Assembly (NCBI GenBank): GCA_049324115.1
Contig: JBMOMN010000036.1
Span: 3,207-67,206 of the forward strand
Origin: Chloroflexota bacterium
GTDB taxonomy: Bacteria > Chloroflexota > Anaerolineae > Anaerolineales > Villigracilaceae
Length of the DNA: 64,000 bases
Direction: 5' to 3'
In this document: positions 2,360 through 44,143 of the stretch, piece after piece
Position numbering within the stretch: position 1 is the stretch's first letter
Layout: each line of letters begins with the position of its first letter
Notes under the pieces: generated by a model
Told to the model about the DNA's origin: nothing
Database searches by the model: none
What the model saw: only the letters and a program-made list of their open reading frames with translations
Translations under genes and position numbers: made by a program

Positions 2360-2800
2360 ATGCTCCAAATCAACCGTCAAACAGATTACGCCATTCGAGT
2401 GGTACTGGCGCTCGCCAAATATCCCCAGCGGACGCGGCTGGCTTCGGCGACGATCCAGCGCGAGATGTTGATCCCCAAGGCGTTCATGGCCCGGATCGTA
2501 GCCCAATTGGCGGCAAGCGGCCTGGTACAAACCTTCGCCGGGCGCGATGGCGGACTGGAACTCCCCTGCCCCGCTTCGGAGATCACCATCAGGGATGTCG
2601 TGGAGGTGTTCGAGGGGCCGATCCTCCTCTCCGAATGCCTCGAATCCCGCGGGGAGGATGACTGCCCATTCCGCGTCGATTGCCCGGTCCGCTCGAAATG
2701 GGGCCGCGTCCAGGCAGCCATGCTGCGGGAAATGGCCTCCATCACGTTCGAAGACCTGGCCATGGAGGCTTTAGCCATCCCGCTGGCTGTCCCGGCATAA
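2360..2800 (+). CDS. Rrf2-family transcriptional regulator, probably Fe-S binding
   Basis: N-terminus MLQINRQTDYAIRVVLALA is typical of an Rrf2 wHTH domain. A C93-x8-C102-x5-C108 cluster-ligand-like triad is present. Confidence 0.85.
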   Translation: MLQINRQTDYAIRVVLALAKYPQRTRLASATIQREMLIPKAFMARIVAQLAASGLVQTFAGRDGGLELPCPASEITIRDVVEVFEGPILLSECLESRGEDDCPFRVDCPVRSKWGRVQAAMLREMASITFEDLAMEALAIPLAVPA

Positions 2801-2848
2801 GTTATCCGCACGCAGGAAAAGCGTGCAAAATTTTGTAAAGGAGACTCT

Positions 2849-4240: not shown

Positions 4241-4251
4241 CGGAGGCTCCC

Positions 4252-5292
4252 ATGTCTTACGAATTTCTCCAAACCCTGTGGTTCGTCCTGATCGCCATTC
4301 TGTGGATCGGCTTCTATTTCCTCGAAGGCTTCGACTTCGGCGTGGGCATGCTCCTGCCCTTCCTGGGCAAAAAGGACGAGGAACGCCGCGCCATCATCAA
4401 CGCCATCGGCTCCACCTGGGACGGCAACGAAGTCTGGCTGCTGACCGCCGGGGGCGCGACCTTCGCCGCCTTCCCGCACTGGTACGCCACCATGTTCAGC
4501 GGCTTCTACCTCCCCCTGTTCCTGCTGCTGGTCGGCCTGATCGTGCGCGGCGTCTCCTTCGAGTACCGCTCCAAGAACGCCGACCCCAAATGGCGCAACC
4601 GCTTCGACTGGATGATCGCCGTCGGCTCCTTCCTGCCGGCCCTCCTGCTCGGCACCGCCTTCGCCAACCTGGCCAAGGGCGTCCCGATCGGCGCAGACAT
4701 GAACTACGTCAGCCCCAACGGCCTGGCGACCACCCTGGGCCTGCTCAACCCCTTCGGCCTGGTCGGCGGCCTGACCACCGTCGCGGTCTTTCTCCTGCAC
4801 GGAGCCAACTTCCTCTCCCTGAAACTGGACGGCGACCTGCGCGAACGCGCCCGCGCCCTCTCGAAGAAACTCTACCTCCCGGCTGCGCTTATGGCCGTCG
4901 TCCTGGCCGTGACCAGCTACATCTACACCGACATCACCACCAAGATCGGCATAGACCCCGGCATCGTCCCCATCGCTTCGGTCATCGCCCTCCTGTCCAG
5001 CATCTACTTCATCAACCGCAAAATGGAAGGTTGGGCCTTCATCACCGTTTCGCTGCACATCGTCCTGACCCAGGTCGCCTTCTTCATGCTCATGTTCCCG
5101 CGCGTGATGATCTCCAGCCTCAACCCCGAGTGGAGCCTCACCATCTACAACGCCTCCTCGTCGGAATACACGCTGAAAGTCATGAGCTTCGTCGCCCTGG
5201 TCTTCGTCCCCATCGTCCTCGCCTACCAGGGCTGGACCTACTACATGTTCCGCAAGCGCATCTCGACCAAAAAAGAGACCCTGGTCTACTAA
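4252..5292 (+). CDS. cydB: Cytochrome bd ubiquinol oxidase subunit II
   Basis: 346 aa. Has the CydB-like start LQTLWFVLIAILWIGFYFLEGFDFGVGML. It lies 11 nt after cydA. Confidence 0.92.
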   Translation: MSYEFLQTLWFVLIAILWIGFYFLEGFDFGVGMLLPFLGKKDEERRAIINAIGSTWDGNEVWLLTAGGATFAAFPHWYATMFSGFYLPLFLLLVGLIVRGVSFEYRSKNADPKWRNRFDWMIAVGSFLPALLLGTAFANLAKGVPIGADMNYVSPNGLATTLGLLNPFGLVGGLTTVAVFLLHGANFLSLKLDGDLRERARALSKKLYLPAALMAVVLAVTSYIYTDITTKIGIDPGIVPIASVIALLSSIYFINRKMEGWAFITVSLHIVLTQVAFFMLMFPRVMISSLNPEWSLTIYNASSSEYTLKVMSFVALVFVPIVLAYQGWTYYMFRKRISTKKETLVY

Positions 5293-5400
5293 CCAGTTGA
5301 AAGTTCGAAAGTTGGAAGGTTGAAGGTTTACCCTGAGCCAGTCGAAGGGGTATACTTCCTTCAACCTTCCGACTTTTAACGTGGAACCTGGAACTCGACC

Positions 5401-8400
5401 ATGCATCGCCGACTCCTGACCCTGAGCCGCTCCTCCCTTTTGGCCTTATCCACCACGATCCTCGCGGGACTTCTGGCCGGACTCCTGACCATCGGCCAAT
5501 CCTGGTCCCTCAGCCGCGTCGTGGACGGGGTCTTCCTCGGCGGGCAGACTCTCGCCCAGGTGCTGCCGCTGATGCAAACCCTGCTGGCCCTCATCTTCGG
5601 GCGCGGCTTGCTGGCCTGGCTGGGCGAAGTCAGCGCCAATGCGGTCGCGGTACGGGTCAAAACCGACCTGCGCCAACGGTTGTTTACCCACATCCTCAGG
5701 CTCGGCCCGGCCTACACCCGCAGCCAGCGCACCGGCGAGTTGACAGCCGCCGCCGTCGAAGGCATCGAAGCCCTGGACGCCTACTTCAGCCAGTACCTGC
5801 CCCAACTGGTCACCTCGGCCCTGGTCCCGGTCACGATCCTGGCCTTCGTCATCCCCAATGACCTGCTCTCCGCCGGGATCCTGCTCGTCACCGCCCCGCT
5901 GATCCCCTTTTTCATGGTCCTGGTCGGCAAGACCGCCGAAGCCCTGACCAAACGCCAGTGGGACACCCTCAGCCTGCTCTCGGCCCACTTCCTCGACAGC
6001 CTGCAAGGGCTGACCACGCTCAAACTCTTCGGCCAGTCGAAGGCCCACACCGCCCGCATCGCCGACGTGGCCGGGCGCTTCCGCGACACCACCCTCGACG
6101 TGCTGCGGATCACCTTCCTCTCGGCCCTGGTGCTGGAACTGCTGACCACCCTCAGCACCGCCATCCTGGCGGTCGAGATCGGATTCCGCCTGCTCTACGC
6201 CCGCATGGAATTCCAGCCGGCGCTCTTCCTGCTCATCCTGGCCCCCGAATTCTACCTGCCGCTGCGGATGCTCGGCCTGCGCTTCCACGCCGGCATGGCC
6301 GGCACGAGCGCGGCGCGGCGGATTTATGAGATTCTGGAGACTGGAGAACAGGGACAAGAGAATAGTCGAATTCTGCCGGCCGAACCGCTATTCTCTACTC
6401 TCCATTTATCTAATCTCTCTTACACCTACCCCGGCGAAACGATGCCCGCCCTGCAAGACATCAACCTGACCATCCAGGCCGGGCAGCGGGTTGCCCTGGT
6501 CGGCAAGACCGGCGCGGGCAAATCTACGCTGGTCAATTTGCTGCTCGGCTTTATCCAACCCTCTTCAGGTCAAATCATCACGCAACACGCAATAATTTCC
6601 AATTACCAATTACCAATTACCAACAACCAACCTCACCCTTTCATCGCCTGGGTCCCCCAACACCCCTACCTCTTCAACGACACCCTCGCCGCCAACATCA
6701 AACTCGGCAAGCCGGACGCCACCCGCGAGCAGGTCGTGGCAGCCGCCCGCGCCGCCCGCCTGGACGAGTTCATCGCTTCGCTGGAGGATGGCTACGAGAC
6801 CCGCGTCGGGGAGGGCGGGGCGCGTCTAAGCGGCGGACAGGCTCAACGTCTCGCGCTGGCGCGGGCATTTTTGATGGACGCGCCGCTCCTCATCCTGGAC
6901 GAACCCACCTCCAGCCTGGACCCGGAGACCGAATCCCAACTCGACCAGGCCATCCGTGAACCTGGCCGGAGCCGAACCGTCATCACCATCGCCCACCGGC
7001 TGAACACCGTTTTCGACGCCGACAAGATCGTGGTGCTGGAGGCGGGCCGCATCGTCGAGACCGGCACCCACGACGAATTGCTGGCAAAAAACGGCGCTTA
7101 CGCCCGGCTGGTGCAGGCCCTCGCCCCGGCCGGTTCCCCGCCGGGAGCCGTGCCGCCCGCCCGCGCCGACGAGCAGAAACTTGTCCAGACGCTCGTGACC
7201 AGCAGCCTGGGCGACGCCATCAGCCCGGAATACCGCGGCCCGTCCACCCACCGCCTGCTCAGACGGCTGCTCGGCTTCCTGCGCGGCTCGTGGCGGCAGG
7301 TGGGGCTGTCGGTGCTGCTGGGGGCGGCCACCATCGGGTCCAGCGTGGCGTTGATGGGCACTTCCGCCTGGCTGATCTCGACCGCCGCCCTGCACGGCTC
7401 GGTGGCGGATTTCGGCGTGGCGGTGGTGGGGGTGCGCTTTTTCGGGATCGCCCGGGGCGTCTTCCGCTATCTCGAACGGCTGGTCTCGCATGGCGTGACC
7501 TTCAACCTGCTGGCCCGCCTGCGGGTCTGGTTCTACCGGGCGCTGGAGCCGCTCGCCCCGGCCCGCCTGATGCGCTTCCGCAGCGGGGACTTGCTCAGCC
7601 GCGTCGTGGCGGACGTGGAGATTTTGGAGAATTTCTACATCCGGGTAATCTCGCCGCCGGTCGTCGCGGCCCTGGTCGGCCTGGGGACCGGCCTGTTCCT
7701 GTGGCGCTACGACACTTCTCTGGCGTTGGCGCTGCTGGCCTCCCTGCTGGCGCTGGGGGTCGGCACACCGTTCATTACCCAGGCCCTCAGCCGGGCACCG
7801 GGGCGGGAACTCATCGCCCGCCGCGCCGCCCTCCACACCCTGCTGGTGGACGGCATCCAGGGCCTGCCCGACCTGCTGGCGTTTGGCCGGGCCGCCGACC
7901 GCGCCGCCCAAATTGACGCCGCCAGCCGGGATTACGGGCGCATCCAGCGGCGGATGGCCGCCATCAACGCCGTCAACACCGGGTTGGGCACGCTCCTGAG
8001 CAACCTGGGCCTGTGGACGGTCGTCCTGCTGGCAATCCCGCTCATCCGTCAAGGCCAAATCCCTGGCGTGATGCTGGCGACCCTGGGACTGGTCACGCTG
8101 GCCGCGTTCGAGGCCGTCACCCCGCTGCCGCTGGCGGCGCAGACGATGAGCAGCAGCGCCGAAGCCGCCCGCAGGCTGTTCGATGTGGTAGACGAAGTAC
8201 CGGGGGTCAGTGAGCAGTATCCAGTATCCAGTGATCAGCCTTCAATTACCAATTACCAATTACAAATTGCGGACCTCACTTTTACCTACCCCAACTCAGC
8301 CGCTCCTGCCCTGCAACATTTGACTTTCGACCTTCGCCCCGGCGAGTCCGTCGCCATCGTCGGGCCGAGCGGGGCGGGGAAATCCACCCTGGTCAATTTG

Positions 8401-8988
8401 CTGATGCGCTTCCGGGATTACCGCCAGGGCCGCATCCGGCTGGACGGGGTTGACCTGCGCGAGATGGAGCAGGACGAGGCGCGCGCCCGATTTGCGGTCG
8501 TAGCCCAAAATTCTTACTTCTTCAACGCCAGCATCCGCCAGAACCTGAAGCTGGCCCGGCCCAACGCGTCGGACGAGGAGATGTTCGAGGCGGCGCGGCA
8601 GGCCCAAATCCACGAATGGATCGCCGGGTTGAAGGACGGGTACGGGACCCGCATCGGGGAGCGCGGTTTCCGTCTCAGCGGCGGCGAACGCCAGCGTCTC
8701 GCCATTGCCCGCGCCCTGCTCAAGGATGCGCCCATCCTGGTGCTCGACGAACCGACCGCCAACCTCGACCCGGTCACAGAGCGGGCCGTGCTAGAGACGC
8801 TCTTCAGGCTGATGGCCGGGCGGACTTCGATCCTGATCACCCACCGGCTGGTCGGCCTCGAGAACGCGGGGACCATCCTCGTGCTGGACCAGGGCCGGAT
8901 CGTCGAACAGGGCCGCCACGAGGCGCTGCTCGCCAGGGACGGTCTGTACCGCCGCCTGTACGACCTGCAAAACCGGATAATTGGGTAA
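5401..8988 (+). CDS. cydDC: Fused CydD-CydC thiol-reductant ABC exporter (two TMD-NBD halves in one polypeptide)
   Basis: 1195 aa with two Walker A sites (GKTGAGKST, GPSGAGKST) and two ABC signatures (LSGGQAQR, LSGGERQR). Each NBD is preceded by a 6-TM region. It lies downstream of cydAB. Confidence 0.85.
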   Translation: MHRRLLTLSRSSLLALSTTILAGLLAGLLTIGQSWSLSRVVDGVFLGGQTLAQVLPLMQTLLALIFGRGLLAWLGEVSANAVAVRVKTDLRQRLFTHILRLGPAYTRSQRTGELTAAAVEGIEALDAYFSQYLPQLVTSALVPVTILAFVIPNDLLSAGILLVTAPLIPFFMVLVGKTAEALTKRQWDTLSLLSAHFLDSLQGLTTLKLFGQSKAHTARIADVAGRFRDTTLDVLRITFLSALVLELLTTLSTAILAVEIGFRLLYARMEFQPALFLLILAPEFYLPLRMLGLRFHAGMAGTSAARRIYEILETGEQGQENSRILPAEPLFSTLHLSNLSYTYPGETMPALQDINLTIQAGQRVALVGKTGAGKSTLVNLLLGFIQPSSGQIITQHAIISNYQLPITNNQPHPFIAWVPQHPYLFNDTLAANIKLGKPDATREQVVAAARAARLDEFIASLEDGYETRVGEGGARLSGGQAQRLALARAFLMDAPLLILDEPTSSLDPETESQLDQAIREPGRSRTVITIAHRLNTVFDADKIVVLEAGRIVETGTHDELLAKNGAYARLVQALAPAGSPPGAVPPARADEQKLVQTLVTSSLGDAISPEYRGPSTHRLLRRLLGFLRGSWRQVGLSVLLGAATIGSSVALMGTSAWLISTAALHGSVADFGVAVVGVRFFGIARGVFRYLERLVSHGVTFNLLARLRVWFYRALEPLAPARLMRFRSGDLLSRVVADVEILENFYIRVISPPVVAALVGLGTGLFLWRYDTSLALALLASLLALGVGTPFITQALSRAPGRELIARRAALHTLLVDGIQGLPDLLAFGRAADRAAQIDAASRDYGRIQRRMAAINAVNTGLGTLLSNLGLWTVVLLAIPLIRQGQIPGVMLATLGLVTLAAFEAVTPLPLAAQTMSSSAEAARRLFDVVDEVPGVSEQYPVSSDQPSITNYQLQIADLTFTYPNSAAPALQHLTFDLRPGESVAIVGPSGAGKSTLVNLLMRFRDYRQGRIRLDGVDLREMEQDEARARFAVVAQNSYFFNASIRQNLKLARPNASDEEMFEAARQAQIHEWIAGLKDGYGTRIGERGFRLSGGERQRLAIARALLKDAPILVLDEPTANLDPVTERAVLETLFRLMAGRTSILITHRLVGLENAGTILVLDQGRIVEQGRHEALLARDGLYRRLYDLQNRIIG

Positions 8989-17850: not shown

Positions 17851-19920
17851 TTATTCTTCGCGCTTCTCGGCGATTTCCTTCTGGCGGATGGCGATCAGCT
17901 CGGCCGCCAGGTGCTGCGGGACGGTCTCGTAGTGGTCGAATTCCATCGAGAAGTAGCCGCGGCCGGCGGTCATCGAGCGGATCTGGGTGGTGTAGCGCAG
18001 CATTTCGGCCAGCGGCACCTGGGCGATGACGGTCGTCTGGCCGCGCTCGGTCTCGGTGCCCATCACGCGCCCGCGGCGGGTGTTCAGGTCGCCCATTACG
18101 TCGCCCATGTGGGCATCCGGCACGGTGACCCGCACCAGCATGATCGGCTCGAACAGCACGGGACCGGCATCCTGCACGGCCAGCTTGAAGGCTTCGCGGG
18201 CGGCGGTCTCGAAGGCCACCGGCTTGGAATCGACCGGGTGCTCCTTGCCGTCGTAAACCGAGACGTGGACGTTGTTCATCGGATAACCGGCGATCACGCC
18301 TTCCTTCATCACGTTGGTAATGCCCTTGCGGATGGCAGGTTCATACGATTGCGAGACCGCGCCGCCGAAAACATCCCAGGTGAGGCTGAAATCTTCGTCG
18401 GGGAGGGGATCAATATTGATGTGGACCTCTCCGAACTGGCCCGCGCCGCCGGTCTGTTTCTTGTGGCGGTACATCGCATTACCCTTCTTGGTGATGCCCT
18501 CGCGGTACGGGACCTTCGGCTCATGCGTTACGAGATGGACCTGTAGCTTGGTCTCGGCCCGGCGGATGGCCACGTCAATGTGCTGGTCGCCCATGCCTTG
18601 CAGGATGGTCTGCCCGGTGGCCTGTTCGTTGTGCCACGAGAGGGTCATGTCTTCTTCGCACAGGCGGGTCAGCGAGGGGGAGATCTTGGCCGAGTCGGCC
18701 TGGGTCTTGGGGAAGACGGCCACCCGGTAGAGGGCGTTCGGGTATTCGGGGACGGGCAGGGTCAGCGGGTGGGCTTTGTCGCACAGGGTATCGCCGGTGG
18801 CGGTCTCGCTCAGCTTCGCCACTGTGCCGATATCACCCGAATGGATCACTTTGACCGGGGAAGTCTCCTTGCCGCGCATGATGCTCAGGCTGGCCATGCG
18901 CTCTTCCACTTCCTTTTTCGGGTTCCACAGGCGGCTGTCAGCCTGGATCATGCCGGAATAGACCCGGAAGAAGGTCTGCTTGCCGACGAACGGGTCGGCA
19001 GTCGTCTTCCAGACGTAAGCGGCCAGCGGACCGGCGTCGGAGGCCCGAAGCTGCTCATCGCCGTTCCTGCCCTGGGCCGTCACCGCCGGGACCTCCGCCG
19101 GGGAGGGCAGCAGGTCCACGATGGCGTCCAGCAGGCGGACGACGCCTTTTTCGTTGCCGGTGGCCGAGGCGAAGACCGGGATAAAGGACCCGGAGAGGAT
19201 CGCCTTCCTGAAACCGCGCACCAGCTCCTCGTCCGTGAGTTCGCCGCTGTCGAGATATTTTTCGAGCAGGGCATCCTCCCCTTCCGCAGCCGCCTCGATC
19301 AGGGCAATGCGGGCCTCCTCGGCAGCGTCTTTGTATTCAGATGGGATCTCGACCGGTTTGTTGTCGAGGCCGTAGGCTTTCATCGTGATCAGGTCAATCA
19401 CGCCCTTGAAATCGGCTTTCTCGCCCCAGGGAAGTTGCGCCGGGACCAGGCGGATCTCGGAAAATTCGGCCACCGAGCCGAGCGCCTTCTGGAAGTTGGC
19501 GTTGTCGCGATCCATCTTGTTGATCACCACGGCCCGCGGCAGGTTGAACTGGCTGCAATAGCGCCAGGCGATCTCCGTGCCGACCTCCAGGCCGGAAACC
19601 GCATCCACCAGGACGAGGGCCGCGTCGGCTACCCGCAAGGCGGAGATCACCTCCCCGACGAAGTCGGTATAGCCCGGCGCGTCGAGGACGTTGATCTTGT
19701 GGTTGCGGTATTCCACCGGCACTACGCTGGTGTAGAGCGAAATCTTGCGGCGAATTTCTTCATCATCATGGTCGGATATGGTTGTCCCGTCCTCGATCTT
19801 GCCCAGGCGGGTCGTCCCCCCCGAAAAATGCAGGAACGCTTCTGCCATCATTGTTTTTCCCGCGCTGCCGTGAGCCACCAATGCGACATTGCGGATAAAC
19901 TCGGTGGTATACTCTTTCAT
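17851..19920 (-). CDS. Elongation factor G-like translational GTPase (paralog)
   Basis: The start is trimmed to MKEYTTEFIRNVALVAHGSAGKTM (ATG 19920). G-domain motifs DAPGYTDF and NKMD are present and EF-G domains II-V follow. The upstream 107 codons of the raw ORF have no support. Confidence 0.85.
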   Translation of the reverse strand: MKEYTTEFIRNVALVAHGSAGKTMMAEAFLHFSGGTTRLGKIEDGTTISDHDDEEIRRKISLYTSVVPVEYRNHKINVLDAPGYTDFVGEVISALRVADAALVLVDAVSGLEVGTEIAWRYCSQFNLPRAVVINKMDRDNANFQKALGSVAEFSEIRLVPAQLPWGEKADFKGVIDLITMKAYGLDNKPVEIPSEYKDAAEEARIALIEAAAEGEDALLEKYLDSGELTDEELVRGFRKAILSGSFIPVFASATGNEKGVVRLLDAIVDLLPSPAEVPAVTAQGRNGDEQLRASDAGPLAAYVWKTTADPFVGKQTFFRVYSGMIQADSRLWNPKKEVEERMASLSIMRGKETSPVKVIHSGDIGTVAKLSETATGDTLCDKAHPLTLPVPEYPNALYRVAVFPKTQADSAKISPSLTRLCEEDMTLSWHNEQATGQTILQGMGDQHIDVAIRRAETKLQVHLVTHEPKVPYREGITKKGNAMYRHKKQTGGAGQFGEVHINIDPLPDEDFSLTWDVFGGAVSQSYEPAIRKGITNVMKEGVIAGYPMNNVHVSVYDGKEHPVDSKPVAFETAAREAFKLAVQDAGPVLFEPIMLVRVTVPDAHMGDVMGDLNTRRGRVMGTETERGQTTVIAQVPLAEMLRYTTQIRSMTAGRGYFSMEFDHYETVPQHLAAELIAIRQKEIAEKREE

Positions 19921-20035: not shown

Positions 20036-20518
20036 ATGCAGCAATATCTCAACTCCCATTCCCTCGTCATTATCGCCCTGGCGCTGGTCGCATTGGCAGC
20101 CTTTCTCCTCCTGCGCGACAAGCCCAAATGGAGTGACCTGCTCGCCTTCGGCGTGATCGTCGCCGGGCTGGCAGCGGCCTGGTTTGCCCTCCGGCCCACC
20201 CAGACCCCGCTCATGGAAAGCTCGGCCAAAGTCCAGGCCATGATCGGGGCGGGTAAACCCGTCCTGCTCGAATTCCAATCCCCCTACTGAATTGCCTGCA
20301 CGATGATGAAACCCGTCGTGGACGGGCTGGAAAAGGAACTCAACGGCCGGGTGGAATTCATCCGCCTGAACATCCAAGATGAAGCCGGCCAGGAACTCGC
20401 CCCGCTGTACGGCTTCGAGTACACACCCACTTTCATTTTCTTCGACGCCCAGGGCAACGAGGTCTGGCGCGAGGTCGGGCGTCTGGACCCGCAGCGGGTG
20501 CGCGACGCCCTGGAATAG
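20036..20518 (+). CDS. Membrane-anchored thioredoxin-fold protein with an in-frame TGA at the redox motif (candidate selenoprotein, UxxC) or a disrupted gene
   Basis: ORFs 20036-20290 and 20303-20518 are in the same frame. Read-through gives ...KPVLLEFQSPY-[TGA]-IAC-TMMKPVVDGLEKEL..., so the TGA occupies the first Cys of a thioredoxin CxxC. A hairpin lies at 20312-20326. Confidence 0.55.
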
Positions 20519-20519: not shown

Positions 20520-21080
20520 ATGTTCCGCCGCCTGATCTTCAACCTGTGGTACCTGCGCCGCCCGCCCTGGGACAGCGGCATCACCCCACCCGAACTCAAA
20601 GAATTCATCGCCACGCATGATCCCGGCCGCGCCCTCGACATCGGCTGCGGCAGCGGGACGAACGTGGTCGCCCTGGCCGAAGCCGGCTGGCAGGTCACGG
20701 GCGTGGATTTCGCCCCGCAGGCCGTCAAAAAAGCCCGCGCCAAAGTCCGCCAGGCCGGCGTATCTGCCGACCTGCGGGTGGGCGACGCGACGCAGCTCAA
20801 GGGCATCACCGGCCCGTTCGATCTGGCTCTCGACATCGGCTGTTTTCACGGGCTGGGCGCGGGGAAGGTGGACTACCTCGCCGCCCTGGACCGGGTGCTG
20901 GCCCCGGGCGGATCCTGGCTGATGTACGGATTCTTCAAATCCCCGCCGGATCACGCGGGACCCGGGCTTGCCGCGCCCGACCTGGGCCTGATCCACGCCC
21001 ATTTCGCTCTCATCTCCCGGCAAGACGGCTTCGACAAACACCAGCGCCCCTCGGCCTGGTTTTTGTACCAAAAACCGTAA
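20520..21080 (+). CDS. Class I SAM-dependent methyltransferase
   Basis: Starts MFRRLIFNLWYLRRPPWD and has SAM motif I ALDIGCGSGTNV. Its ATG lies 1 nt after the stop of the upstream thioredoxin-like gene. Confidence 0.8.
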   Translation: MFRRLIFNLWYLRRPPWDSGITPPELKEFIATHDPGRALDIGCGSGTNVVALAEAGWQVTGVDFAPQAVKKARAKVRQAGVSADLRVGDATQLKGITGPFDLALDIGCFHGLGAGKVDYLAALDRVLAPGGSWLMYGFFKSPPDHAGPGLAAPDLGLIHAHFALISRQDGFDKHQRPSAWFLYQKP

Positions 21081-21135: not shown

Positions 21136-22074
21136 ATGCGCATCCTCTTCCTCTTCCTCGACGGCATCGGCCTCGGCCCCGACGACCCCGCGACCAACCC
21201 CCTCGCCCGCGCCCACATGCCCACCCTCCAATCCCTGCTCGGCGGACAGCGCCTGCTGGCGTCCGCCGCGCCGTATCACGGCGAGCGGGCCACCCTCCTG
21301 GCCCTGGACGCCGCCCTGGGCGTGGACGGGCTGCCCCAGTCCGCCACGGGACAGGCGGTGCTGGTGACCGGGGTCAACGTCCCGGCGGAGATCGGCTACC
21401 ATTACGGCCCCAAGCCCAACCCCGAAGTGGCGGCCTATCTCAATAACGGGAACACGCTCTTTTCCTGGCTGCGCGCCGAGGGGAAATCCGCCGCCTTGCT
21501 CAACGCCTATCCGCCGCGCTACTTCGACGGGATCGAGAGCGGCAAACGGCTCTACTCGTCCATCCCGCTGGCCGTCACCAGCGCCGGCATCCCGCTTTTC
21601 ACGCAAAAGGAATTATTCGCCGGGGAAGCCCTGTCAGCCGATTTCACCGGCCAGGGCTGGCGCGAGATGCTCGGCTTCCCGGATGCGCCGCTGATGAGTC
21701 CGCAACAGGCCGGGGAAAAATTGCTCCAATTGGCTATGCGCTACGACTTCTCCCTGTTCGAGTATTGGGCCAGCGACTACGCCGGTCACAAGCAAAACAT
21801 GGACTGGGCGGTGCGGCAGATGGAGGCCTTCGATGGGGTGCTGGAGGGGATTTTGGAGACTGGAGACTGGGGACCGGGGACGGAACAGGATGAGCTGCTG
21901 GTTTTGGTGACCTCCGACCACGGGAACATGGAGGACCTGTCCACCCGGCGGCATACGGGGGCCAAAGTGCCGGGGCTGTTGATCGGGTCGAGGGCGGCGA
22001 GGGAGCGGTTTGCGGAGGGGTTGTCCAGTTTGGCAGACGTGGTCCCGGTAATAAGGAGGGCGCTGGCCAGGTAG
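21136..22074 (+). CDS. Alkaline-phosphatase-superfamily metalloenzyme (cofactor-independent phosphoglycerate mutase / phosphopentomutase-like)
   Basis: 312 aa with an N-terminal ILFLFLDGIGLG and a C-terminal VTSDHGNMED metal-site motif. Confidence 0.65.
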   Translation: MRILFLFLDGIGLGPDDPATNPLARAHMPTLQSLLGGQRLLASAAPYHGERATLLALDAALGVDGLPQSATGQAVLVTGVNVPAEIGYHYGPKPNPEVAAYLNNGNTLFSWLRAEGKSAALLNAYPPRYFDGIESGKRLYSSIPLAVTSAGIPLFTQKELFAGEALSADFTGQGWREMLGFPDAPLMSPQQAGEKLLQLAMRYDFSLFEYWASDYAGHKQNMDWAVRQMEAFDGVLEGILETGDWGPGTEQDELLVLVTSDHGNMEDLSTRRHTGAKVPGLLIGSRAARERFAEGLSSLADVVPVIRRALAR

Positions 22075-22200
22075 TAGCTCACGTTCAAAACGTGACCTAC
22101 GACTTCGGAAGTCTTGGCAAGTTTGGCAGATGTAACTCCGGCGATACGGAGAATCTTGCAAAAAATAAAAAATGTAGACATTGACTGGAGGGTACCAAAA

Positions 22201-22568
22201 ATGATACAATCGTCGGCGGATGATGAGAATTTGCGCTTGAAGGTGGTATTCTTTCGGACCGAAAGAGGCCATGAACCGGTTCGCGAATGGCTGAAATCGC
22301 TTTCGCAGGAAGAGAGACGCGCCATCGGCGAGGATGTAAAAACAGCGCAATTTGGATGGCCATTGGGAATGCCGCTTATCCGCAAACTGGAACCGGGATT
22401 TGGGAAGTGCGCTCACATCTTCCTTCTGGCATAGCACGAGCTTTATTCACGATTGAAGGCAATATGATGATCCTTCTGCATGGGTTTATCAAGAAATCCC
22501 AAAAGACGCCCCCTGAGGATTTACATCTTGTCCGAAGACGATTGGCACAATTACGAGGTGAGTCATGA
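22201..22568 (+). pseudogene. higB: HigB/Gp49-like (RelE superfamily) toxin carrying a 1-nt frameshift
   Basis: The N-terminal part is in frame 1 (...VVFFRTERGHEPVREWLKSL...RKLEPG). The C-terminal part is in frame 0 (IWEVRSHLPSGIARALFTIEGNMMILLHGFIKKSQKTPPEDL). The junction is at the G-run 22395-22397. Confidence 0.7.
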
Positions 22569-22846
22569 AAAAAGAACACATCGGTTCCGATTTCGACGAG
22601 TTCCTGGCTGAGGAAGGTCTGTTGGCCGAAGCCGAGGCTGTGGCGATCAAGCGGGTGATCGCTTTCCAGGTTGAACAGTTGATGAAGGAACAACACCTGA
22701 CCAAGACCGAGATGTCCCGCCGCATGAACACCAGCCGGGCCGCCCTGGAACGCTTGCTCGACCCCCGCTCGCCAGCCGTCACCCTCCAAACCCTGGACCG
22801 GGCCGCCAGGGCCTTGGGTAAACGCCTGCAAATCACGCTGACGTAA
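22565..22846 (+). CDS. higA: XRE-family HTH antitoxin (HigA-like)
   Basis: 93 aa with the HTH segment LTKTEMSRRMNTSRAALERLL. It overlaps the toxin stop by 4 nt and is followed by a hairpin at about 22857-22880. Confidence 0.8.
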   Translation: MKKEHIGSDFDEFLAEEGLLAEAEAVAIKRVIAFQVEQLMKEQHLTKTEMSRRMNTSRAALERLLDPRSPAVTLQTLDRAARALGKRLQITLT

Positions 22847-23129
22847 ACAGTTCACGGACTCAAAAGTCTCCCGACTTTTGAGCGGCAAGGCGGGTCACTT
22901 GTAGGGACAAATTGGCAATTTGTCCTACGAACTACGGTCCAACCCTCCACGAATGGGACCGCGAATACACAAACCGGGACGACTCTTCGTTCATTCGCGC
23001 CTTATTCGTTCCATTCGTGGGCGGAGGTTCCGCAACCTTCGCAAGGTTGTTTGTCGGAACCCAAAGGGGGCTACGCCCCCTCTGGACACCCCCACAGGAT
23101 TCAGAAAACAGAAGCCAGAATCCAAAACC

Positions 23130-25376
23130 TTAACCGGGGGAGAGCACCACACGGAAACCAAGATAGCTGTTGAAGTCGTCAGGAGAGTTCCTGTACCGAA
23201 AGGCACAGCGGGCGTTGTTCCGATTGATGTTCCACGAGCCGCCGCGCACCGCCCGCGCTCCCGAAGCATTTTCATCTTCCCTTTTGAGCTGCGCTTTGAT
23301 CTCTGCCGGGTATGGATATTTATCCCACAGGGAGCGGGTCCACTCCCAGACGTTGCCGCTCATATCTGCCACGCCATACGGGCTGTCGCCCAGCGGGGAG
23401 AACTGCGTTACCGGGGTCGTCCCGCCAATCTTGATTTCGCTCGAATTACAGCGTTTCGGGTCCCAGTCGTCCCCCCAGGGATAGAGGTTGCCATACGCGC
23501 CGCGGGCGGCCTTTTCCCACTCGGCCTCGGAGGGCAGGCGGTAGAGATAGCCGGAGGGCAAATCCGCCTTTTGGGTTTCGTTCAGCCAGGCGATGAATTT
23601 TTGAGCATTTTGCCAGGATACCCGCGTCACCGGATGGTCTTTCTTTTTCTGCCAATCCGAAACGGGGTGCTCCCCGCCGGCCGCTTTCAAATACACGCCG
23701 TATTCGGCGTTGGTGACCGGGAAGCGGGCCATGAAGTAATCGTAGGGGAGGTCGAGGGTATGTTGAGGCTTTTCGTCATCAGCAGCAAACTTATCATCGT
23801 CCTTGCTGCCCATGATGAATTTGCCCGCAGGAATGGGCATGAATTCCATCCCGGCGAAGAAGCGCGCCCCTTCGCGGGAAGGCTGCTGGCCTTTTGGCCC
23901 CAGGCCGCGAGTGGTTATCGTTTCATCAGCGGGTTCGAGGTCTTCGGGTTTAAGGTCAAAGGTCGCAGGTTGCAGGTCCGGTTCTTGGGTCTGGGCTTCG
24001 GCAGGCCCTTCGACTTCGCTCAGGGCGGGTTTCTCTTGGGCAGGTTTCTCCGGCGGGGCGGAGAGATGCAGGAAATCGTCCAGGGCGGCGGCGTCGAAGG
24101 CCGGACTGAAGGCTTCGATAGCCCGCAGGGTGCGCCGCAGGCGCGGCACTTTGTTGTAGCCTTCGTAATAACTCTCCAATGGCCTGGCTTCCTCGCCCCC
24201 CGCAGCCCATTTGAGCGCATCCCGCACGAAATCGAAACGCAACTCCATATCGTCGAAATCGAAAATCTTGTCTTTGAACTCCGGCGGGGCGGCCCGCATC
24301 AGCACCTGCCAGCGTACAAAATCATCCCTGACCCCGGCGTGTCCCTTGCCGGTGTTGAGCAGCAAGGCCCAGGCCAGGTTGATGTCGTTCAGGAAGGTTT
24401 TGACCTTGCGCGGGTTGAGTTCGGCCCCCACGGAAATGATCTGCCAGTGCTTCGCCATCTCAGGATCGTGGCTTTGAGCCTGGATGAACTGGCCCATCTC
24501 TTCATCGGGCAGGGAGGGCAGGTTGAAGCGCAGTTGGATGATCTTTTCGAGATATTCGCCGCTCTCTGATCCATCCGCAAACTTGTAATGTTCTTTCACC
24601 GCCTCCCGCACCCGGTCGGCGTCCGCGCCGAGCACGAAGACACAGCCTTTTTTGTCCAGGAACAACTTGACCGCTTCCAGCACCTGGACGGTCTTCTCCG
24701 GCAGGCAGCGGTCGAGGTCGTCTATGAAAATGACCAGCGCGCCTTCCTGGTCGTTGATCTTCGGGTACTGGCTCTTGCCATGCACCCAGAGCGCCAGCAG
24801 GTTTTCGAAGGCGCTGTCGAAATAGTCGAAAAAGGCGGTGTGGGTCTTGAAAGGCGACTCGCTGCGATGCTTCTGCGGATCGAATTTGACCTGCAATTCC
24901 GCTCCCAGCCCGCCGAATTTGAACTGGAAGGCGTTGATGAACATTTCAACGAAATCGTACTCCGGCGCAAGCTCCTCCCCGCCTAAAATTGCCTTGAACT
25001 TATCCTTCAATTTCCCGGCTTGCATTTCCTGCAAAATCTTGCGGACCAGCGCCACCAGCAGTTCGGATTCATCCTGGTATTTCCAGGCGTCGAACCAGAC
25101 GACTTTGCATGGGCGAAACTGTGCCTTTTCCTGTGGATCGAAATAGCCGCTTTGGGCCTTGAGCATCATCTCTATCCGGTGCAGGAGGGTAGTCTTTCCC
25201 GATCCCCATGCGCCGCTGATGCCGATCACCAACGGGGTGCGCGTTTCGATGCTTGCGACCAGGCGGGACAGGGTTATCGCGAAGGCATCGAAGTTGAATG
25301 CGGCCTTTTCATCCAATTCGAGCGGCAGGTCATGGCGGATTTTTGGCGTTTCGAGTTTGCGTTTTCTGTCTGTCAT
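23130..25376 (-). CDS. KAP-family P-loop NTPase fused to a C-terminal FGE/SUMF1 (formylglycine-generating-enzyme-like) domain
   Basis: Walker A GISGAWGSGKTTLL, FDAWKYQDE and Walker B LVIFIDDLDRC are KAP hallmarks. After a Pro/Glu linker the C-terminal region has FGE motifs (RVSWQNAQKF, YRLPSEAEWEKAARG, GNVWEWT, RGGSW). The start is set at ATG 25376 with a GGGGAGAG RBS; the raw ORF extends to 25418. Confidence 0.85.
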   Translation of the reverse strand: MTDRKRKLETPKIRHDLPLELDEKAAFNFDAFAITLSRLVASIETRTPLVIGISGAWGSGKTTLLHRIEMMLKAQSGYFDPQEKAQFRPCKVVWFDAWKYQDESELLVALVRKILQEMQAGKLKDKFKAILGGEELAPEYDFVEMFINAFQFKFGGLGAELQVKFDPQKHRSESPFKTHTAFFDYFDSAFENLLALWVHGKSQYPKINDQEGALVIFIDDLDRCLPEKTVQVLEAVKLFLDKKGCVFVLGADADRVREAVKEHYKFADGSESGEYLEKIIQLRFNLPSLPDEEMGQFIQAQSHDPEMAKHWQIISVGAELNPRKVKTFLNDINLAWALLLNTGKGHAGVRDDFVRWQVLMRAAPPEFKDKIFDFDDMELRFDFVRDALKWAAGGEEARPLESYYEGYNKVPRLRRTLRAIEAFSPAFDAAALDDFLHLSAPPEKPAQEKPALSEVEGPAEAQTQEPDLQPATFDLKPEDLEPADETITTRGLGPKGQQPSREGARFFAGMEFMPIPAGKFIMGSKDDDKFAADDEKPQHTLDLPYDYFMARFPVTNAEYGVYLKAAGGEHPVSDWQKKKDHPVTRVSWQNAQKFIAWLNETQKADLPSGYLYRLPSEAEWEKAARGAYGNLYPWGDDWDPKRCNSSEIKIGGTTPVTQFSPLGDSPYGVADMSGNVWEWTRSLWDKYPYPAEIKAQLKREDENASGARAVRGGSWNINRNNARCAFRYRNSPDDFNSYLGFRVVLSPG

Positions 25377-25406
25377 ATCACTCTCCCCAATGGGACGGAG
25401 GGTGGA

Positions 25407-25570
25407 GGTGCGTCGCACCTGTTTCGACGGGAGCGGCCTCAGCCAGAAGCGGTTCTGCTTTAGCGGATGCGCCTACTGAGGGTGCGTCGCACCTGTTTCA
25501 ACGGGAGCAGCCTCAGCCAGAAGCGGTTCCGCTTTAGCGGATGCGCCTGCCGGTCAGGTGCGTCGCACTC
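25407..25570. repeat. Tandem repeat of about 75 bp (2.1 copies), each starting with the palindrome GGTGCGTCGCACC
   Basis: Copies start at 25407, 25481 and 25557 (the last partial). The array lies immediately upstream of the KAP-FGE gene. Confidence 0.8.
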
Positions 25571-25702
25571 GCGGGCAGGGTCGTTCTTTATCATTGTACA
25601 ACAACCGGACAAAAATTAAGCCAGCTATTTTATTGAATCGAGCCAGCTTAATTTGTGTGTCGAGCATGCTCGATTCACGAGCAGTCACGTTTCAAACGTG
25701 AC

Positions 25703-26983
25703 CTACACAAATCTCATGAAGACCTGGTTGGCGAGCAGGCGGGCGCGGGGGGTGAGCCTTAAGACTTCCGAAGTCTTGCCTCGCTCCGCTGCGCTTCGGG
25801 GGTGCTTCGCAAAGACTTCGGAAGTCTCCGGTACAGCCCACTCGACCAGGCCCAACCGGAGCAGATCGTCCACTTCCTGCGGGAAGGCTTCGGGGATGGA
25901 CAGGCCGTAGCGGGCGCGGAAATCGCTATCGGATACGCCTTCGCGGGTCAGGCGCAGGCCGGTCATCATCGTCTCCTGCATGTCTTCGCGGGGGGTGTTT
26001 TTGTGGGAGTTGACCGTCGCAGGGGTCAGTGGGAATTGGTAATTGGTAATTGGTAAATCGTAAGTCGTAAGTCGTTCGATGTAGGTCTTGATGCGCAGGA
26101 CGTTCGAGTAGCGCACCCCGTCGGCGTAGCCGTGCGCGCCGGCGCCGAGTCCCAGGTAGGGCAGGTTGCGCCAGTATTGCAGGTTGTGGCGGCACTCAAA
26201 TTCTGAATTCTGAATTCTGAATTCTGAATTTGCCTTCGCCCAATTGGAAATCTCGTATTGGATAAAGCCATTCTGACCCAGGAACCCGTCGGCCCACTCG
26301 TACATTTCGGCGGCCACATCCGGGTCAGGAGATGAGAGCAGGCCCCGGGCGGACCAGCGCCCGAAGGGGGTCCCGTGCTCCAGGGTCAGGGCGTAGAGCG
26401 AGAGATGCTCCGGGGACAGGTCCACGGCCCGTTTGACGGTAGCCTGCCAGCGGTCCAGGGATTGTTCCGGGAGGCCGTAGATCAGGTCGAGGGACAGGTT
26501 GTCGAAACCGGCGCGCCGCGCCCAGGTCACGGCTTCGATCACGTCGAAGAAATCGTGCTCCCGTTCGAGCATCCGCAGCTCGTCGGGATGGGAGGACTGG
26601 ACGCCGAAACTGATGCGGTTGACGCCCAGGGAGCGCAGGTCACGCAGGTATTCGAGCGAGACCGTGCCGGGGTTGGCTTCGATGGTGGTCTCGGGGTTGT
26701 CGAGGGGAAAATGATCGGTGAGAGCGGCCAGGATTTGCTCGAATTGGGACGGGGATAAAAGCGATGGCGTGCCGCCGCCAAAGAAAATGGTTTTAGTCTG
26801 GTAGTTGGATAGTTGGTTCGTTCGATAGTCGGTTCGTTGGCCGAGAAAGCCGATCTCGCGGACGAGGGCGTCCACGTAGGCGGGGATGGCGGCACCCTGG
26901 CCGGCGTAGGTGTTGAAGTCGCAGTAAGCGCAGCGGTGGCGGCAGAAGGGGATGTGGAGGTAGATGGAGAGGGGGTGTGTCAT
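25703..26983 (-). CDS. hemW: Radical SAM heme chaperone HemW (HemN-like, oxygen-independent coproporphyrinogen oxidase family)
   Basis: The start is trimmed to MTHPLSIYLHIPFCRHRCAYCDF (CxxxCxxC), with GGGTPS and a HemN_C-like C-terminus. It carries several in-frame repeat insertions. Confidence 0.85.
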   Translation of the reverse strand: MTHPLSIYLHIPFCRHRCAYCDFNTYAGQGAAIPAYVDALVREIGFLGQRTDYRTNQLSNYQTKTIFFGGGTPSLLSPSQFEQILAALTDHFPLDNPETTIEANPGTVSLEYLRDLRSLGVNRISFGVQSSHPDELRMLEREHDFFDVIEAVTWARRAGFDNLSLDLIYGLPEQSLDRWQATVKRAVDLSPEHLSLYALTLEHGTPFGRWSARGLLSSPDPDVAAEMYEWADGFLGQNGFIQYEISNWAKANSEFRIQNSEFECRHNLQYWRNLPYLGLGAGAHGYADGVRYSNVLRIKTYIERLTTYDLPITNYQFPLTPATVNSHKNTPREDMQETMMTGLRLTREGVSDSDFRARYGLSIPEAFPQEVDDLLRLGLVEWAVPETSEVFAKHPRSAAERGKTSEVLRLTPRARLLANQVFMRFV

Positions 26984-31180: not shown

Positions 31181-31636
31181 AGTCTCTATCCGAATATTGA
31201 CGGAATGCGGACTTCAGTCCGCCGGCAACCGGCAAACTAAAGTTTGCACTCCTTTTTTCGGGCAGGTTCTCAGTCTCTATCCGAAAATTGCTGGAATGCG
31301 GACTTCAGTCCGCCGGCAACCGGCAAACTAAAGTTTGCACTCCTTTTTTCGGGCAGGTTCTCAGTCTCTATCCGAATATTGACGGAATGCGGACTTCAGT
31401 CCGCCGGCAACCGGCAAACTAAAGTTTGCACTCCTTTTTCGGGCAGGTTCTCAGTCTCTATCCGAATATTGCTGGAATGCGGACTTCAGTCCGCCGGCAA
31501 CCGGCAAACTAAAGTTTGCACTCCTTTTTTCGGGCAGGTTCTCAGTCTCTATCCGAATATTGACGGAATGCGGACTTCAGTCCGCCGGCAACCGGCAAAC
31601 TAAAGTTTGCACTCCTTTTTCGGGCAGGTTCTCAGT
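31181..31636. repeat. Tandem array of 5 x about 91 bp, each unit carrying two hairpins (GCGGACTTCAGTCCGC and GCAAACTAAAGTTTGC)
   Basis: Unit starts are at 31181, 31272, 31363, 31453 and 31544. Units are nearly identical, with no unique spacers. Confidence 0.9.
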
Positions 31637-31886
31637 GAATTCCCAGAAGTTTGTCAATCTTCGGGCGGTCGAACCCGACGATGAGCTTGCCGCCGATGTC
31701 AATCACCGGCACGCCGCTCTGGCCTGAGCGCCGGAGCATGTCGCGGGCGGCAGCCTGGTCACGGCTCACGTCCACGTCGCGGAATTTGACGCCTTTCTCG
31801 CGGAAATACTTTTTCGCCATGTTACAGAACGAGCAGGTCGGCGTGCTGAAGACGATCACACGCGGCTGGGGTTGTTGAACGGTCAT
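31632..31886 (-). CDS. Glutaredoxin-family protein
   Basis: MTVQQPQPRVIVFSTPTCSFCNMAKKYF (CxxC) and GVPVIDIGGKLIVGF, with a GGAGGT RBS before ATG 31886. Confidence 0.85.
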   Translation of the reverse strand: MTVQQPQPRVIVFSTPTCSFCNMAKKYFREKGVKFRDVDVSRDQAAARDMLRRSGQSGVPVIDIGGKLIVGFDRPKIDKLLGIH

Positions 31887-31941
31887 CCAGATACCTCCAA
31901 AATGGTTTTTCCGTCCTTTGGATGACAAACCTTGCAAAAGG

Positions 31942-32676
31942 TTACAAACTGGCAAAATAATCCAGGAACATGTGACTGGCGGTTAGCGTGACTTCGGGGT
32001 GGGCCTGGCCGAAGGCGCGCAGGCGCGGCTCGTGCGGTCCCAGGAACAGGCGGATGGCTAACCTGGGCAGATCCTTACGAAAGTCGGCGGCCGCGTCGCC
32101 GCAGTGCAGGTGCCAGCCGGTCCCGGTTTTGACGGCCACCCCGCATAAGCCGGGGGTATGTCCGGGTAACGGGATCAGCCACATCTCCGGATCGAAGGGC
32201 AGGCGGATGGCGTCGAAGTCGAACCATTTCTCCCCGGTCGCATCGTACAGGACAAAATCCGGTTTGTGGGCGATATGCCGGGGGACGTAGGCCGCGCCGA
32301 GATACCCCTTGCGGCGTCCCGTGAAAGCCATGTATTCCTTGCGATGCACATGCACTTTTGCATGGGGAAAATCTGCCAGGCCGCCGCAGTGGTCGAAGTG
32401 CATGTGGGTCAGCACGATGTGGCGGACATCCTCGGGGCGGAATCCCAGGCCCTTGATCCGGTTGACAGCCGCTTCGTCCGGGTCGAAGGGCATCACGGTG
32501 ATGGCCCGGAAGAATTGGGTGAACCAGGTCGGGCGGGCGTAATCGTCCAGGCCCAGGCCGGTATCCACCAGCACCAGGCCGTCGCTCGTCTCGACCAGCA
32601 GCGAAACTTCCCCGGTCTTCCAGTCGGAGGGCCAGTGGGCGTTACAGGTGAAGGAATTGAAGATGTGAAGGGCCAT
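31942..32676 (-). CDS. MBL-fold metallo-hydrolase
   Basis: The start is trimmed to MALHIFNSF. HxHxDH motif is THMHFDHCGG. The upstream part of the raw 458-aa ORF is unsupported. Confidence 0.8.
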   Translation of the reverse strand: MALHIFNSFTCNAHWPSDWKTGEVSLLVETSDGLVLVDTGLGLDDYARPTWFTQFFRAITVMPFDPDEAAVNRIKGLGFRPEDVRHIVLTHMHFDHCGGLADFPHAKVHVHRKEYMAFTGRRKGYLGAAYVPRHIAHKPDFVLYDATGEKWFDFDAIRLPFDPEMWLIPLPGHTPGLCGVAVKTGTGWHLHCGDAAADFRKDLPRLAIRLFLGPHEPRLRAFGQAHPEVTLTASHMFLDYFASL

Positions 32677-42318: not shown

Positions 42319-42412
42319 GAAGCCTCTCCTCGTCCAAAATTCATGCTTATTTTCACCAACATTATCAACTTTTATTGGACAACGTGTATGTCAGTTGCAT
42401 TGCAATATCAAA

Positions 42413-42433: not shown

Positions 42434-42458
42434 CCGAATCTCTAGCAGCGAACGGTCG

Positions 42459-44108: not shown

Positions 44109-44143
44109 ATCAGTGTGACCGAACTTGCCGGGCCAGGCCGGGG

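Follow-up and report, generated by a model that had tools for sequence, protein, structure and literature searches.

We analysed a stretch of 64,000 nucleotides (nt) from a Chloroflexota bacterium (GenBank assembly GCA_049324115.1, contig JBMOMN010000036.1, positions 3,207 to 67,206; hereafter the window) and found a gene for a putative selenoprotein of the thioredoxin fold, with an in-frame UGA in place of the first cysteine (Cys) of the C-x-x-C redox motif and a methyltransferase gene directly downstream. On comparative evidence we put at about 0.9 the probability that the UGA at 20288-20290 is translated as selenocysteine (Sec) by means of a selenocysteine insertion sequence (SECIS) at 20310-20328. 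The comparisons below establish the Sec/Cys pairing at this codon, a frame conserved before as well as after the UGA, a co-varying SECIS hairpin specific to the TGA forms, the fold and the gene order; SelB dependence and the insertion of selenium are what we infer from the SECIS and the Sec/Cys pairing.

The open reading frames (ORFs) at 20036-20290 and 20303-20518 (+) form one frame, whose sole interruption is the TGA at 20288-20290, as an original prediction made from the letters of the window had described. Read through, the frame yields a product of 160 residues, MQQYLNSHS-[hydrophobic 10-26]-RDKPKWS-[hydrophobic 35-52]-...GKPVLLEFQSPY-U-IAC-TMMKPVVDGLE...YTPTFIFFD...DALE, in which the sequence around the read-through site is LLEFQSPY-U-IAC-TMMKPVVDGLE. 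With Cys in place of U, this product matched the Pfam families PF00085 (Thioredoxin; E 1e-10, 42 bits, cut-off 23.5) and PF13098 (Thioredoxin_2; E 1.9e-10, 41.4 bits, cut-off 27), in agreement with the thioredoxin-fold pattern that the prediction had seen in the read-through translation. The G+C content of the window is 61%. Its 42 predicted genes include 12 that end in TGA; the standard code is therefore in use in this organism. The 84-residue truncated product is also called in assembly GCA_040752455.1 and in the Logan assemblies SRR32167788 and SRR29635779, and the window DNA is 100% identical to these three assemblies over 540 bp, TGA included. The TGA is therefore genuine, and a read error is excluded.

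Of 343 relatives retrieved in a protein search, the best 120 were full-length (~160 aa) and came mostly from metagenome-assembled genomes (MAGs) of Anaerolineae or other Chloroflexota. All of the listed full-length homologues had Cys at the position of the TGA, inside an invariant F-Q-S-P-[YF]-C-x-x-C, and these ~120 Cys homologues of 160 aa aligned with the read-through product end to end. Such a list is blind to Sec forms, because gene callers cannot yield full-length proteins that contain a TGA; DNA was therefore scanned directly for the pattern LLEFQSPY-TGA-NNNNNN-TGY, which constrained nothing 3' of the second Cys. As the pattern holds ~43 bits by our estimate, less than one chance match is expected per collection. 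It was matched by at least 120 metagenome contigs and at least 119 loci of a one-genome-per-species collection, which gives at least 239 diverged loci of the TGA form, from at least 117 species-level genomes. Among the matches listed, all records but one were titled Anaerolineales, Anaerolineae or Chloroflexota, and the carriers include the cultured Longilinea arvoryzae KOME-1 (L133), four Candidatus Villigracilis species and a complete MAG chromosome (CP070639.1).

Two loci of this set call for comment. The contig JAIWHF010000059.1 (L200), binned as 'Methanosarcinales archaeon', has a TGA gene of the Anaerolineales type whose translation, from 30 residues before the TGA to ~80 after it, hardly differs from those found in Anaerolineales MAGs; it is probably a binning contaminant. 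The MAG CAZCPP01 holds two different TGA-form copies on separate contigs (L127 and L205), either a pair of paralogues or the sign of a mixed bin.

Every pattern match encodes the conserved C-terminal half of the thioredoxin past the TGA. Of the 201 unique genes with complete 3' ends, 199 have 74-82 open codons past the TGA, and in the other two the frame extends for 264 and 270 codons, running on into the methyltransferase frame. Alignment of homologues, a check proposed with the original prediction, thus gave either Cys or TGA at exactly this codon and an intact downstream frame in the TGA forms. L238, the TGA-bearing relative nearest to the window, differs from it at 11 synonymous and 5 non-synonymous codons 3' of the UGA. 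Of the 201 genes, 130 also have TGA as their true stop; within the same mRNA one UGA would be read through and another obeyed, which makes the predicted recoding site-specific. When 189 Sec and 113 Cys sequences were placed on a quick neighbour-joining tree, parsimony required at least 31 switches between Sec and Cys.

Shortly after the UGA, the sequence CCCGUC-GUG-GACGGG (20312-20326) forms the core of a hairpin that overlaps the codons for K-P-V-V-D-G-L, with 21 nt from the UGA to the stem and 27 nt from the UGA to the loop. The bacterial SECIS model, as outlined in a recent review, has a loop of 3-9 nt with a G among its first two nucleotides, a stem of 4-16 bp, a spacing of 16-37 nt and an energy of -7.5 kcal/mol or lower (PMC13188914). 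The hairpin of the window lies within all four published limits (loop GUG, 6 bp, 27 nt, -9.3 kcal/mol). The stem-loop proposed earlier, with its loop 27 nt after the UGA and hence in the bacterial range, thus also agrees with the SECIS model against which the prediction had asked that it be compared.

Covariation was examined in 210 unique TGA-form sequences from loci of 44-69% G+C, with positions counted from the U of the UGA as 0. RNAalifold returned no structure for the 210 sequences, and pairs were therefore counted explicitly. Pair 24-38 was C-G in 199 sequences; 25-37 was C-G in 148 and C.A in 55, the latter where the codon is GAG for Glu; 26-36 was C-G in 186, U-A in 19 and G-C in 3; 28-34 was U-A in 191; and 29-33 was C-G in 205. 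Pair 27-35 was formed in all 210 sequences, as G-C (129), A-U (78) or G-U (3), and here a change from Val (GUC) to Ile (AUC) is offset by a synonymous change from GAC to GAU in the Asp codon. The outer pair 22-40 was likewise A-U or G-U in 210 of 210. Third-codon positions are frozen in the TGA forms (C29 in 209, G38 in 200 and C26 in 188 of the 210), whereas the Pro codon directly 5' of the UGA has C in just 126. The loop follows the consensus G30-U31-N, being GUG in 150 sequences and GUU in 44. In a diverse subset of 149 sequences, 87.9% of the cells were paired, against 22-43% in slid controls; cells changed on both sides numbered 79, against 24.5 +/- 3.4 in shuffles (none of 500 reached the observed value), and the covariation score was 0.200, against 0.105. 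Taken as comparative evidence, these counts argue strongly that the hairpin is a SECIS under selection, maintained by compensatory changes in the TGA forms.

The Cys forms behaved differently. In the DNA of 11 distinct Cys-form genes, at least two of the six core pairs were lost in nine, for example where AUC faces an uncompensated GAC, or in the combinations GCC...AAA and ACG...GCG. At least five of the six core pairs were formed in 202 of the 210 Sec forms and in 2 of the 11 Cys forms (Fisher p = 4e-10, a value that is indicative only, because the two sets share ancestry and are not independent samples). The median hairpin energy was -7.9 kcal/mol in the Sec forms and -2.7 kcal/mol in the Cys forms.

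The protein itself has a thioredoxin fold preceded by a membrane anchor. We used the AlphaFold 2 (AF2) model of P0001, the nearest Cys homologue (87% identical), which has a predicted local distance difference test (pLDDT) score of 88.7. It shows two long N-terminal helices joined by a short K/R-rich loop, a linker, and then the thioredoxin fold, with a strand at 76-81 and the motif 85-88 at the N-terminus of helix 86-101. The hydrophobic segments at residues ~10-26 and 35-52, which had been read from the sequence as two transmembrane (TM) helices, are thus modelled as helices. The best Foldseek matches in the PDB were classical thioredoxins (Trx1, Trx-m and E. coli TrxA), with target-normalised TM-scores of ~0.75-0.8 and identities of 22-31%. 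P131 and T132 are invariant in both of our alignments, and T130 is invariant in one (A1) and near-invariant in the other (A4). The equivalog cut-offs for TrxA and TrxC were not reached by the product (TIGR01068, 51 vs 96.8 bits; NF006898 and NF008229, 35.5 vs 138 and 35.1 vs 125). It has a thioredoxin fold, yet it is no orthodox thioredoxin.

Several observations weigh against translation of the UGA as Sec, the shared ancestry behind the above p-value among them. Two of the Cys forms, L001 (the nearest Cys relative of the window) and L251, keep the hairpin, which is therefore no infallible sign of Sec. At position 29 both carry U, in contrast to the C of 209 of the 210 Sec forms, and their hairpins fit 'fossil' SECIS elements after a recent change from Sec to Cys, of the kind that is described as left behind in other families (PMC1794560). 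Judged from the window sequence by itself, the hairpin lends a SECIS weak support: a simple hairpin in agreement with the SECIS consensus accompanies 7.6% of all UGA triplets in the window, the local fold is ordinary (z = -1.08), and the minimum-energy structure pairs differently. The competing minimum-energy stem uses nucleotides +7 to +18 from the UGA. With the UGA in the A site, these nucleotides would, given the usual ribosome footprint, lie inside the mRNA channel of the ribosome. The SECIS stem, which starts at +22, would fold freely outside it.

Searches for the Sec machinery also gave negative results. Rfam SECIS families were unmatched at the gathering threshold in the window, and at E <= 10 in 20200-20450. 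ARAGORN and Rfam detected no tRNA-Sec in the window or in all of the 240+ related loci, Pfam detected no selA, selB or selD among 40 window proteins, and a tblastn search with E. coli SelA, SelB and SelD (NC_000913.3) against 1.59 Mb of related loci gave just one weak match to a GTPase domain; this related DNA consists of slices of 1-14 kb from many genomes, and because the slices are so short the negatives for sel genes carry no information on the genomes as such. Within the window, 20036-20518 was the only coding frame split by TGA that a scan turned up. The topology is a further difficulty. Mean K+R counts across the family are 2.6 in the loop between the helices, 0.04 in the N-terminal tail and ~2 after helix 2; under the positive-inside rule, such a distribution tends to favour a thioredoxin domain outside the cytoplasm, which would be awkward with a cytoplasmic partner that depends on S-adenosylmethionine (SAM).

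We propose that, with the UGA at the ribosome, the hairpin at 20310-20328 would lie just outside and act as a bacterial SECIS, recruiting SelB-GTP-Sec-tRNA(Sec), so that Sec would be inserted and termination avoided. The product would combine its N-terminal two-helix membrane anchor with a classical thioredoxin fold whose redox centre, U85-I-A-C88, replaces C-x-x-C. It would cycle between selenol/thiol and selenylsulfide, as a membrane-tethered thiol/selenol-disulfide oxidoreductase. The gene is predicted to be co-transcribed with that of a TPMT/TehB-like methyltransferase, probably with translational coupling, and for this reason the two proteins presumably act together. For any function more specific than that of a membrane-tethered oxidoreductase working with the adjacent methyltransferase, confidence is low.

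The explanation that comes nearest to competing with Sec insertion, improbable as we judge it, is that the UGA is recoded not as Sec, or not only as Sec: SelB together with a tRNA(Sec)-like tRNA(Cys) ('tRNAReC') would insert Cys, or the hairpin would stimulate near-cognate read-through. The comparative data show continued translation and a role of the hairpin, and are silent on the amino acid inserted. Vargas-Rodriguez and colleagues reportedly described SelB-dependent insertion of Cys at UGA in 2018, so there is a precedent. What speaks against such a reading is the site, the nucleophilic first position of CxxC and the classic place of Sec, together with the agreement of the hairpin, whose loop opens with GU, with the SelB-type SECIS consensus. 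A direct Cys codon is moreover free and is used by many lineages, which makes a costly UGA plus SECIS for Cys unlikely.

Translation as Sec also has to be set against loss of function. The original prediction named as its alternative a nonsense mutation from TGC or TGT to TGA, which would have inactivated a Cys-type thioredoxin gene and left the two ORFs as debris. A single change from C to A turns TGC into TGA, the nearest Cys homologue P0001 has TGC at the site, and both the gene callers and GenBank give two ORFs. However, the same TGA recurs in the diverged loci counted above with the downstream frame open and conserved, synonymous differences exceed non-synonymous ones past the UGA between two TGA-bearing relatives, the hairpin is upheld by compensatory changes in the TGA forms only, and the many Sec/Cys switches fit a functional polymorphism and not repeated identical knock-outs. 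We reject the pseudogene on recurrence, intact frame and covariation, and consider it very unlikely. The selenoprotein that the prediction preferred, of the UxxC thioredoxin-fold type and with the SECIS at 20312-20326, is supported by the recurrence, the covariation and the decay in Cys forms.

Equally slight is the chance of a split thioredoxin, in which the 84-residue membrane peptide and a 71-residue C-terminal fragment started at the ATG at 20303 would assemble. In-frame ATG codons do occur at 20303 and 20306, and RefSeq lists the matching C-terminal fragment of Longilinea as a protein (WP_075074444.1). Such a fragment would have neither the strand of the active site nor any part of the U/C-x-x-C motif; the residues at the two ATG codons vary across the TGA forms, with AUG at 20306 in only 65 of the 210, so that a restart is not conserved; and the covariation of the hairpin and its frozen distance from the UGA would go unexplained. 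As for a sequencing or assembly error in a true TGC or TGT, single-base errors occur and the window probably derives from a MAG (its ORF products are deposited solely from Chloroflexota MAGs), but the identical 540 bp in three other assemblies and the TGA at the same codon in hundreds of unrelated assemblies make the chance negligible.

The neighbourhood of the gene is conserved (Table 1). The start codon of the methyltransferase gene (ATG 20520) lies 1 nt past the TAG at 20516-20518, the arrangement that had been noticed in the window sequence, and a methyltransferase gene lies directly downstream in 195 of the 212 loci with room for one. Stop and start most often overlap as ATGA (29 of the 45 loci where a pattern located the methyltransferase start), which suggests translational coupling of the thioredoxin and the methyltransferase. 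The nearest solved relatives of the latter are small-molecule N/O/S-methyltransferases, namely Rv0560c (a heterocyclic-toxin methyltransferase), plant thiol methyltransferase 1, a halide methyltransferase and TehB. The product of the frequent third gene, PF01676, has weak similarity to cofactor-independent phosphoglycerate mutases. The Cys forms have the same gene neighbourhood, so the arrangement goes with the family as a whole, independently of Sec.

Upstream, the EF-G family GTPase was considered as a possible SelB and rejected: it has the EF-G domains III/IV/C and reached 36.6 bits with TIGR00475, against a cut-off of 242. This gene is conserved context, not evidently tied to the thioredoxin in function. 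The thioredoxin and methyltransferase frames merge into one ORF in L143 (JADJNA010000062.1) and L147 (CAWGMC010000004.1). We did not accept these as true, Rosetta-stone fusions: both merge at the ATGA overlap and come from long-read MAGs, the EF-G gene of L143 has in-frame stops, and the fusions are probable artefacts of 1-nt indels. In-frame stops in the methyltransferase, metalloenzyme and EF-G genes across the loci are sporadic and occur mostly in error-prone long-read MAGs.

Table 1. Features of the selenoprotein locus in the window
Feature	Position	Strand	Evidence and remarks
Predicted selenoprotein coding sequence (CDS), complete (160 codons + TAG stop)	20036..20518	+	One frame; Pfam PF00085 and PF13098; end-to-end Cys homologues
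In-frame UGA, residue 85, first position of U-x-x-C, probably read as Sec	20288..20290	+	Aligns with the invariant first Cys of the homologues
TGC, resolving Cys88 of U-x-x-C	20297..20299	+	C88 invariant in the alignments
SECIS hairpin (predicted)	20310..20328	+	Stem 20312-20317 / 20321-20326; loop G-U-G 20318-20320; outer A-U pair 20310/20328 beyond an A.C mismatch
TM helix 1, residues ~10-26	20063..20113	+	Hydrophobic, uncharged; no K/R/D/E across the family; AF2 helix 9-27 in P0001
TM helix 2, residues ~35-52	20138..20191	+	After the short positive loop R-D-K-P-K-W-S; AF2 helix 32-52 in P0001
T130-P131-T132, proline loop of the thioredoxin fold, facing the active site	20423..20431	+	Conservation; presumably cis
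TPMT/TehB-like class I SAM methyltransferase	20520..21080	+	Pfam TPMT, TehB, Methyltransf; conserved operon partner
PF01676 'Metalloenzyme' (alkaline-phosphatase superfamily), frequent third gene	21136..22074	+	Downstream in 126/242 loci
EF-G family GTPase, divergent	17851..19920	-	NCBIfam NF009381, 870 bits; upstream and divergent in 207/242 loci

From this gene order one could imagine that the Sec-thioredoxin and the methyltransferase, often with the PF01676 metalloenzyme, form a hitherto unrecognised membrane-associated module specific to Anaerolineales, which would reduce and then methylate a chalcogen, a metalloid or a thiol-reactive toxin. We regard this as doubtful. Selenite, tellurite, arsenite or a heterocyclic toxin may be its substrate, with the selenol as the capturing or reducing nucleophile. 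In a more exotic variant, the supply of selenium would decide whether the UGA is decoded as Sec or as Cys.

Members of the phylum Chloroflexi are known to decode Sec (PMC5322559; PMC1794560), and selenoprotein-rich Dehalococcoidia are recorded in BSepDB, according to its description (PMC13326102). In our search for a second selenoprotein, E. coli FdhF used as a probe had no match in the related loci, and formate dehydrogenase, the usual selenoprotein partner, is not in the window. A formate-tetrahydrofolate ligase (FTHFS, 861 bits) at 58650-60653 (+) points to formate/one-carbon metabolism. Two further candidates in the window were rejected. A flag for a TGA-split frame at 46155 (+) is antisense to a cytochrome gene. 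The glutaredoxin-like YruB-family protein at 31632-31955 (-), which reached 57.6 bits against the cut-off of 66 of the 'Uxx-star' (seleno)protein model, has a CSFC motif and a TGA stop without the U-x-x-stop arrangement, and is an ordinary Cys protein.

Other parts of the window hold genes of energy metabolism. Three adjacent genes for very large multihaem c-type cytochromes (1361, 481 and 735 aa) lie at 38233-46351 (-); Cytochrome_C7/c3 repeats are numerous in them, and an MtrC/MtrF-like domain is present in the 735-aa protein. This cluster suggests a capacity for extracellular electron transfer in an Anaerolineae-type organism. An oxygen-handling module, in a lineage usually counted as anaerobic, is encoded at 2360-8988 (+): an Rrf2-family regulator, subunits I and II of cytochrome bd oxidase, and a CydDC-like fused ABC transporter of 1195 aa that contains two membrane domains and two ATPase domains.

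The region 3' of the metalloenzyme gene looks like an insertion hot spot. A direct repeat of 46 nt (22013-22058 / 22106-22151, 72% identical) copies the 3' end of that gene, and the repeat copy opens an ORF of 106 aa (22114-22434, +), followed by a helix-turn-helix (HTH) protein of 93 aa (22565-22846, +). These two may be a toxin-antitoxin-like module, with a Pfam match for the HTH domain alone. At the same position L001 has an Avd/reverse-transcriptase pair instead. Further on, at 23130-25418 (-), lies a KAP-family P-loop NTPase fused to an FGE-sulfatase domain, and two direct repeats of 68 nt (25407-25474 / 25481-25548; 96% identical, starts 74 nt apart) overlap the start of this gene and its upstream region. 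The orthologue of the KAP NTPase in L001 (12533-16499) adjoins a bAvd gene and an RVT_1 reverse transcriptase, in the layout of a diversity-generating retroelement. In the window we found no reverse transcriptase at the KAP NTPase locus and no pair of template and variable repeats in 22000-26000.

The gene belongs to a well-known class, the UxxC thioredoxin-fold selenoproteins, which is archetypal for bacteria. Thioredoxin (Trx) selenoproteins with UxxC (PF00085), for example those of Treponema denticola and Geobacter, are given as an experimentally verified family (PMC13188914; PMC1794560). The protein of the window shares with them the thioredoxin fold, Sec at the first CxxC position, Cys orthologues and a SECIS in the CDS directly downstream. 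It differs in its N-terminal two-helix membrane anchor, in its motif (SPY-U-[ILVM]-x-C, against W-U-G-P-C), in its link to a methyltransferase and in its range, which in the data gathered is limited to Anaerolineales-type Chloroflexota. The table of a 2026 review includes, besides Trx (PF00085), the thiol:disulfide interchange protein (PF13098) and several thioredoxin-like families (PMC13188914). The window protein resembles the PF13098 selenoprotein (reference sequences WP_011366075.1 and MGB1650493.1) in its family match, its UxxC motif and a plausible membrane-associated or extracytoplasmic redox role. In structure, its domain is nearest to classical thioredoxins and not to TlpA-/DsbE-type proteins.

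The hairpin is like the bSECISearch consensus and the E. coli fdhF SECIS in its small apical loop opening with G-U, its G+C-rich upper stem, a loop 16-37 nt past the UGA and an energy of -7.5 kcal/mol or lower. It is unlike them in being minimal (a 3-nt loop and 6-8 bp), and we found no conserved lower stem or bulged U. Two demands together fix its sequence, that of the hairpin and that of the conserved peptide K-P-[VIA]-V-D-[GER].

A thioredoxin-like fold with Sec in or near the redox motif is also found in the families modelled by NCBIfam as SaoT (NF040730), HUIPC-motif (NF047660), VPGUxxT (NF041383), Trx7/PDZ (NF041199) and TsoB (NF045694). None of the NCBIfam selenoprotein models scored above its cut-off with the window protein, the best being TsoB (16.6 bits vs 805) and Trx7/PDZ (16.2 vs 300), the sole two of these five models to give any match. 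Because the family is without a curated selenoprotein model, NCBI PGAP splits the gene. GenBank holds the window gene as MEW5829283.1 ('hypothetical protein') and MEW5829282.1 ('thioredoxin family protein'); for L. arvoryzae, the C-terminal fragment WP_075074444.1 alone was found in the collection. A Sec redox module tied to a small-molecule methyltransferase of the TPMT/TehB/ArsM type recalls ArsM (UxxG), MduS, methyltransferase/UXPK-star and ArsM/AhpD, as these are listed in the review (PMC13188914). Unlike in the ArsM/MduS-type selenoproteins, Sec here would be in a separate thioredoxin-fold protein and not in the methyltransferase. The neighbouring methyltransferase has no in-frame TGA in any locus and scores far below the cut-offs of the ArsM/MduS-type models.

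The subfamily, with its two-helix anchor, SPY-U-x-x-C motif, Anaerolineales-wide range, methyltransferase link and minimal overprinted SECIS, appears to be undescribed: our literature search gave no account of it, and we found no mention of Anaerolineae in the selenoprotein papers searched. BSepDB, which is described as holding 57,630 entries in 111 families (PMC13326102), may already have these genes under 'Trx'.

Since the thioredoxin-fold UxxC protein is the commonest kind of selenoprotein, no concept is changed by these results. They do correct a systematic misannotation in at least 117 species-level genomes of Anaerolineales, including that of the type strain Longilinea arvoryzae KOME-1, where the records give for this gene a truncated 'thioredoxin family protein', with or without a separate 'hypothetical protein'. 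The family is a study case of a SECIS overprinted on a conserved peptide, in which the replacement of Val by Ile is balanced, four codons off, by a synonymous change, and of hairpins that decay, or persist as fossils, in Cys forms. Because the hairpin is minimal and very well sampled, it would be a good substrate for studies of SelB recognition. For the organisms themselves, the finding means that Sec decoding is predicted to be widespread in the Anaerolineales, which are abundant in sludge, sediments and groundwater.

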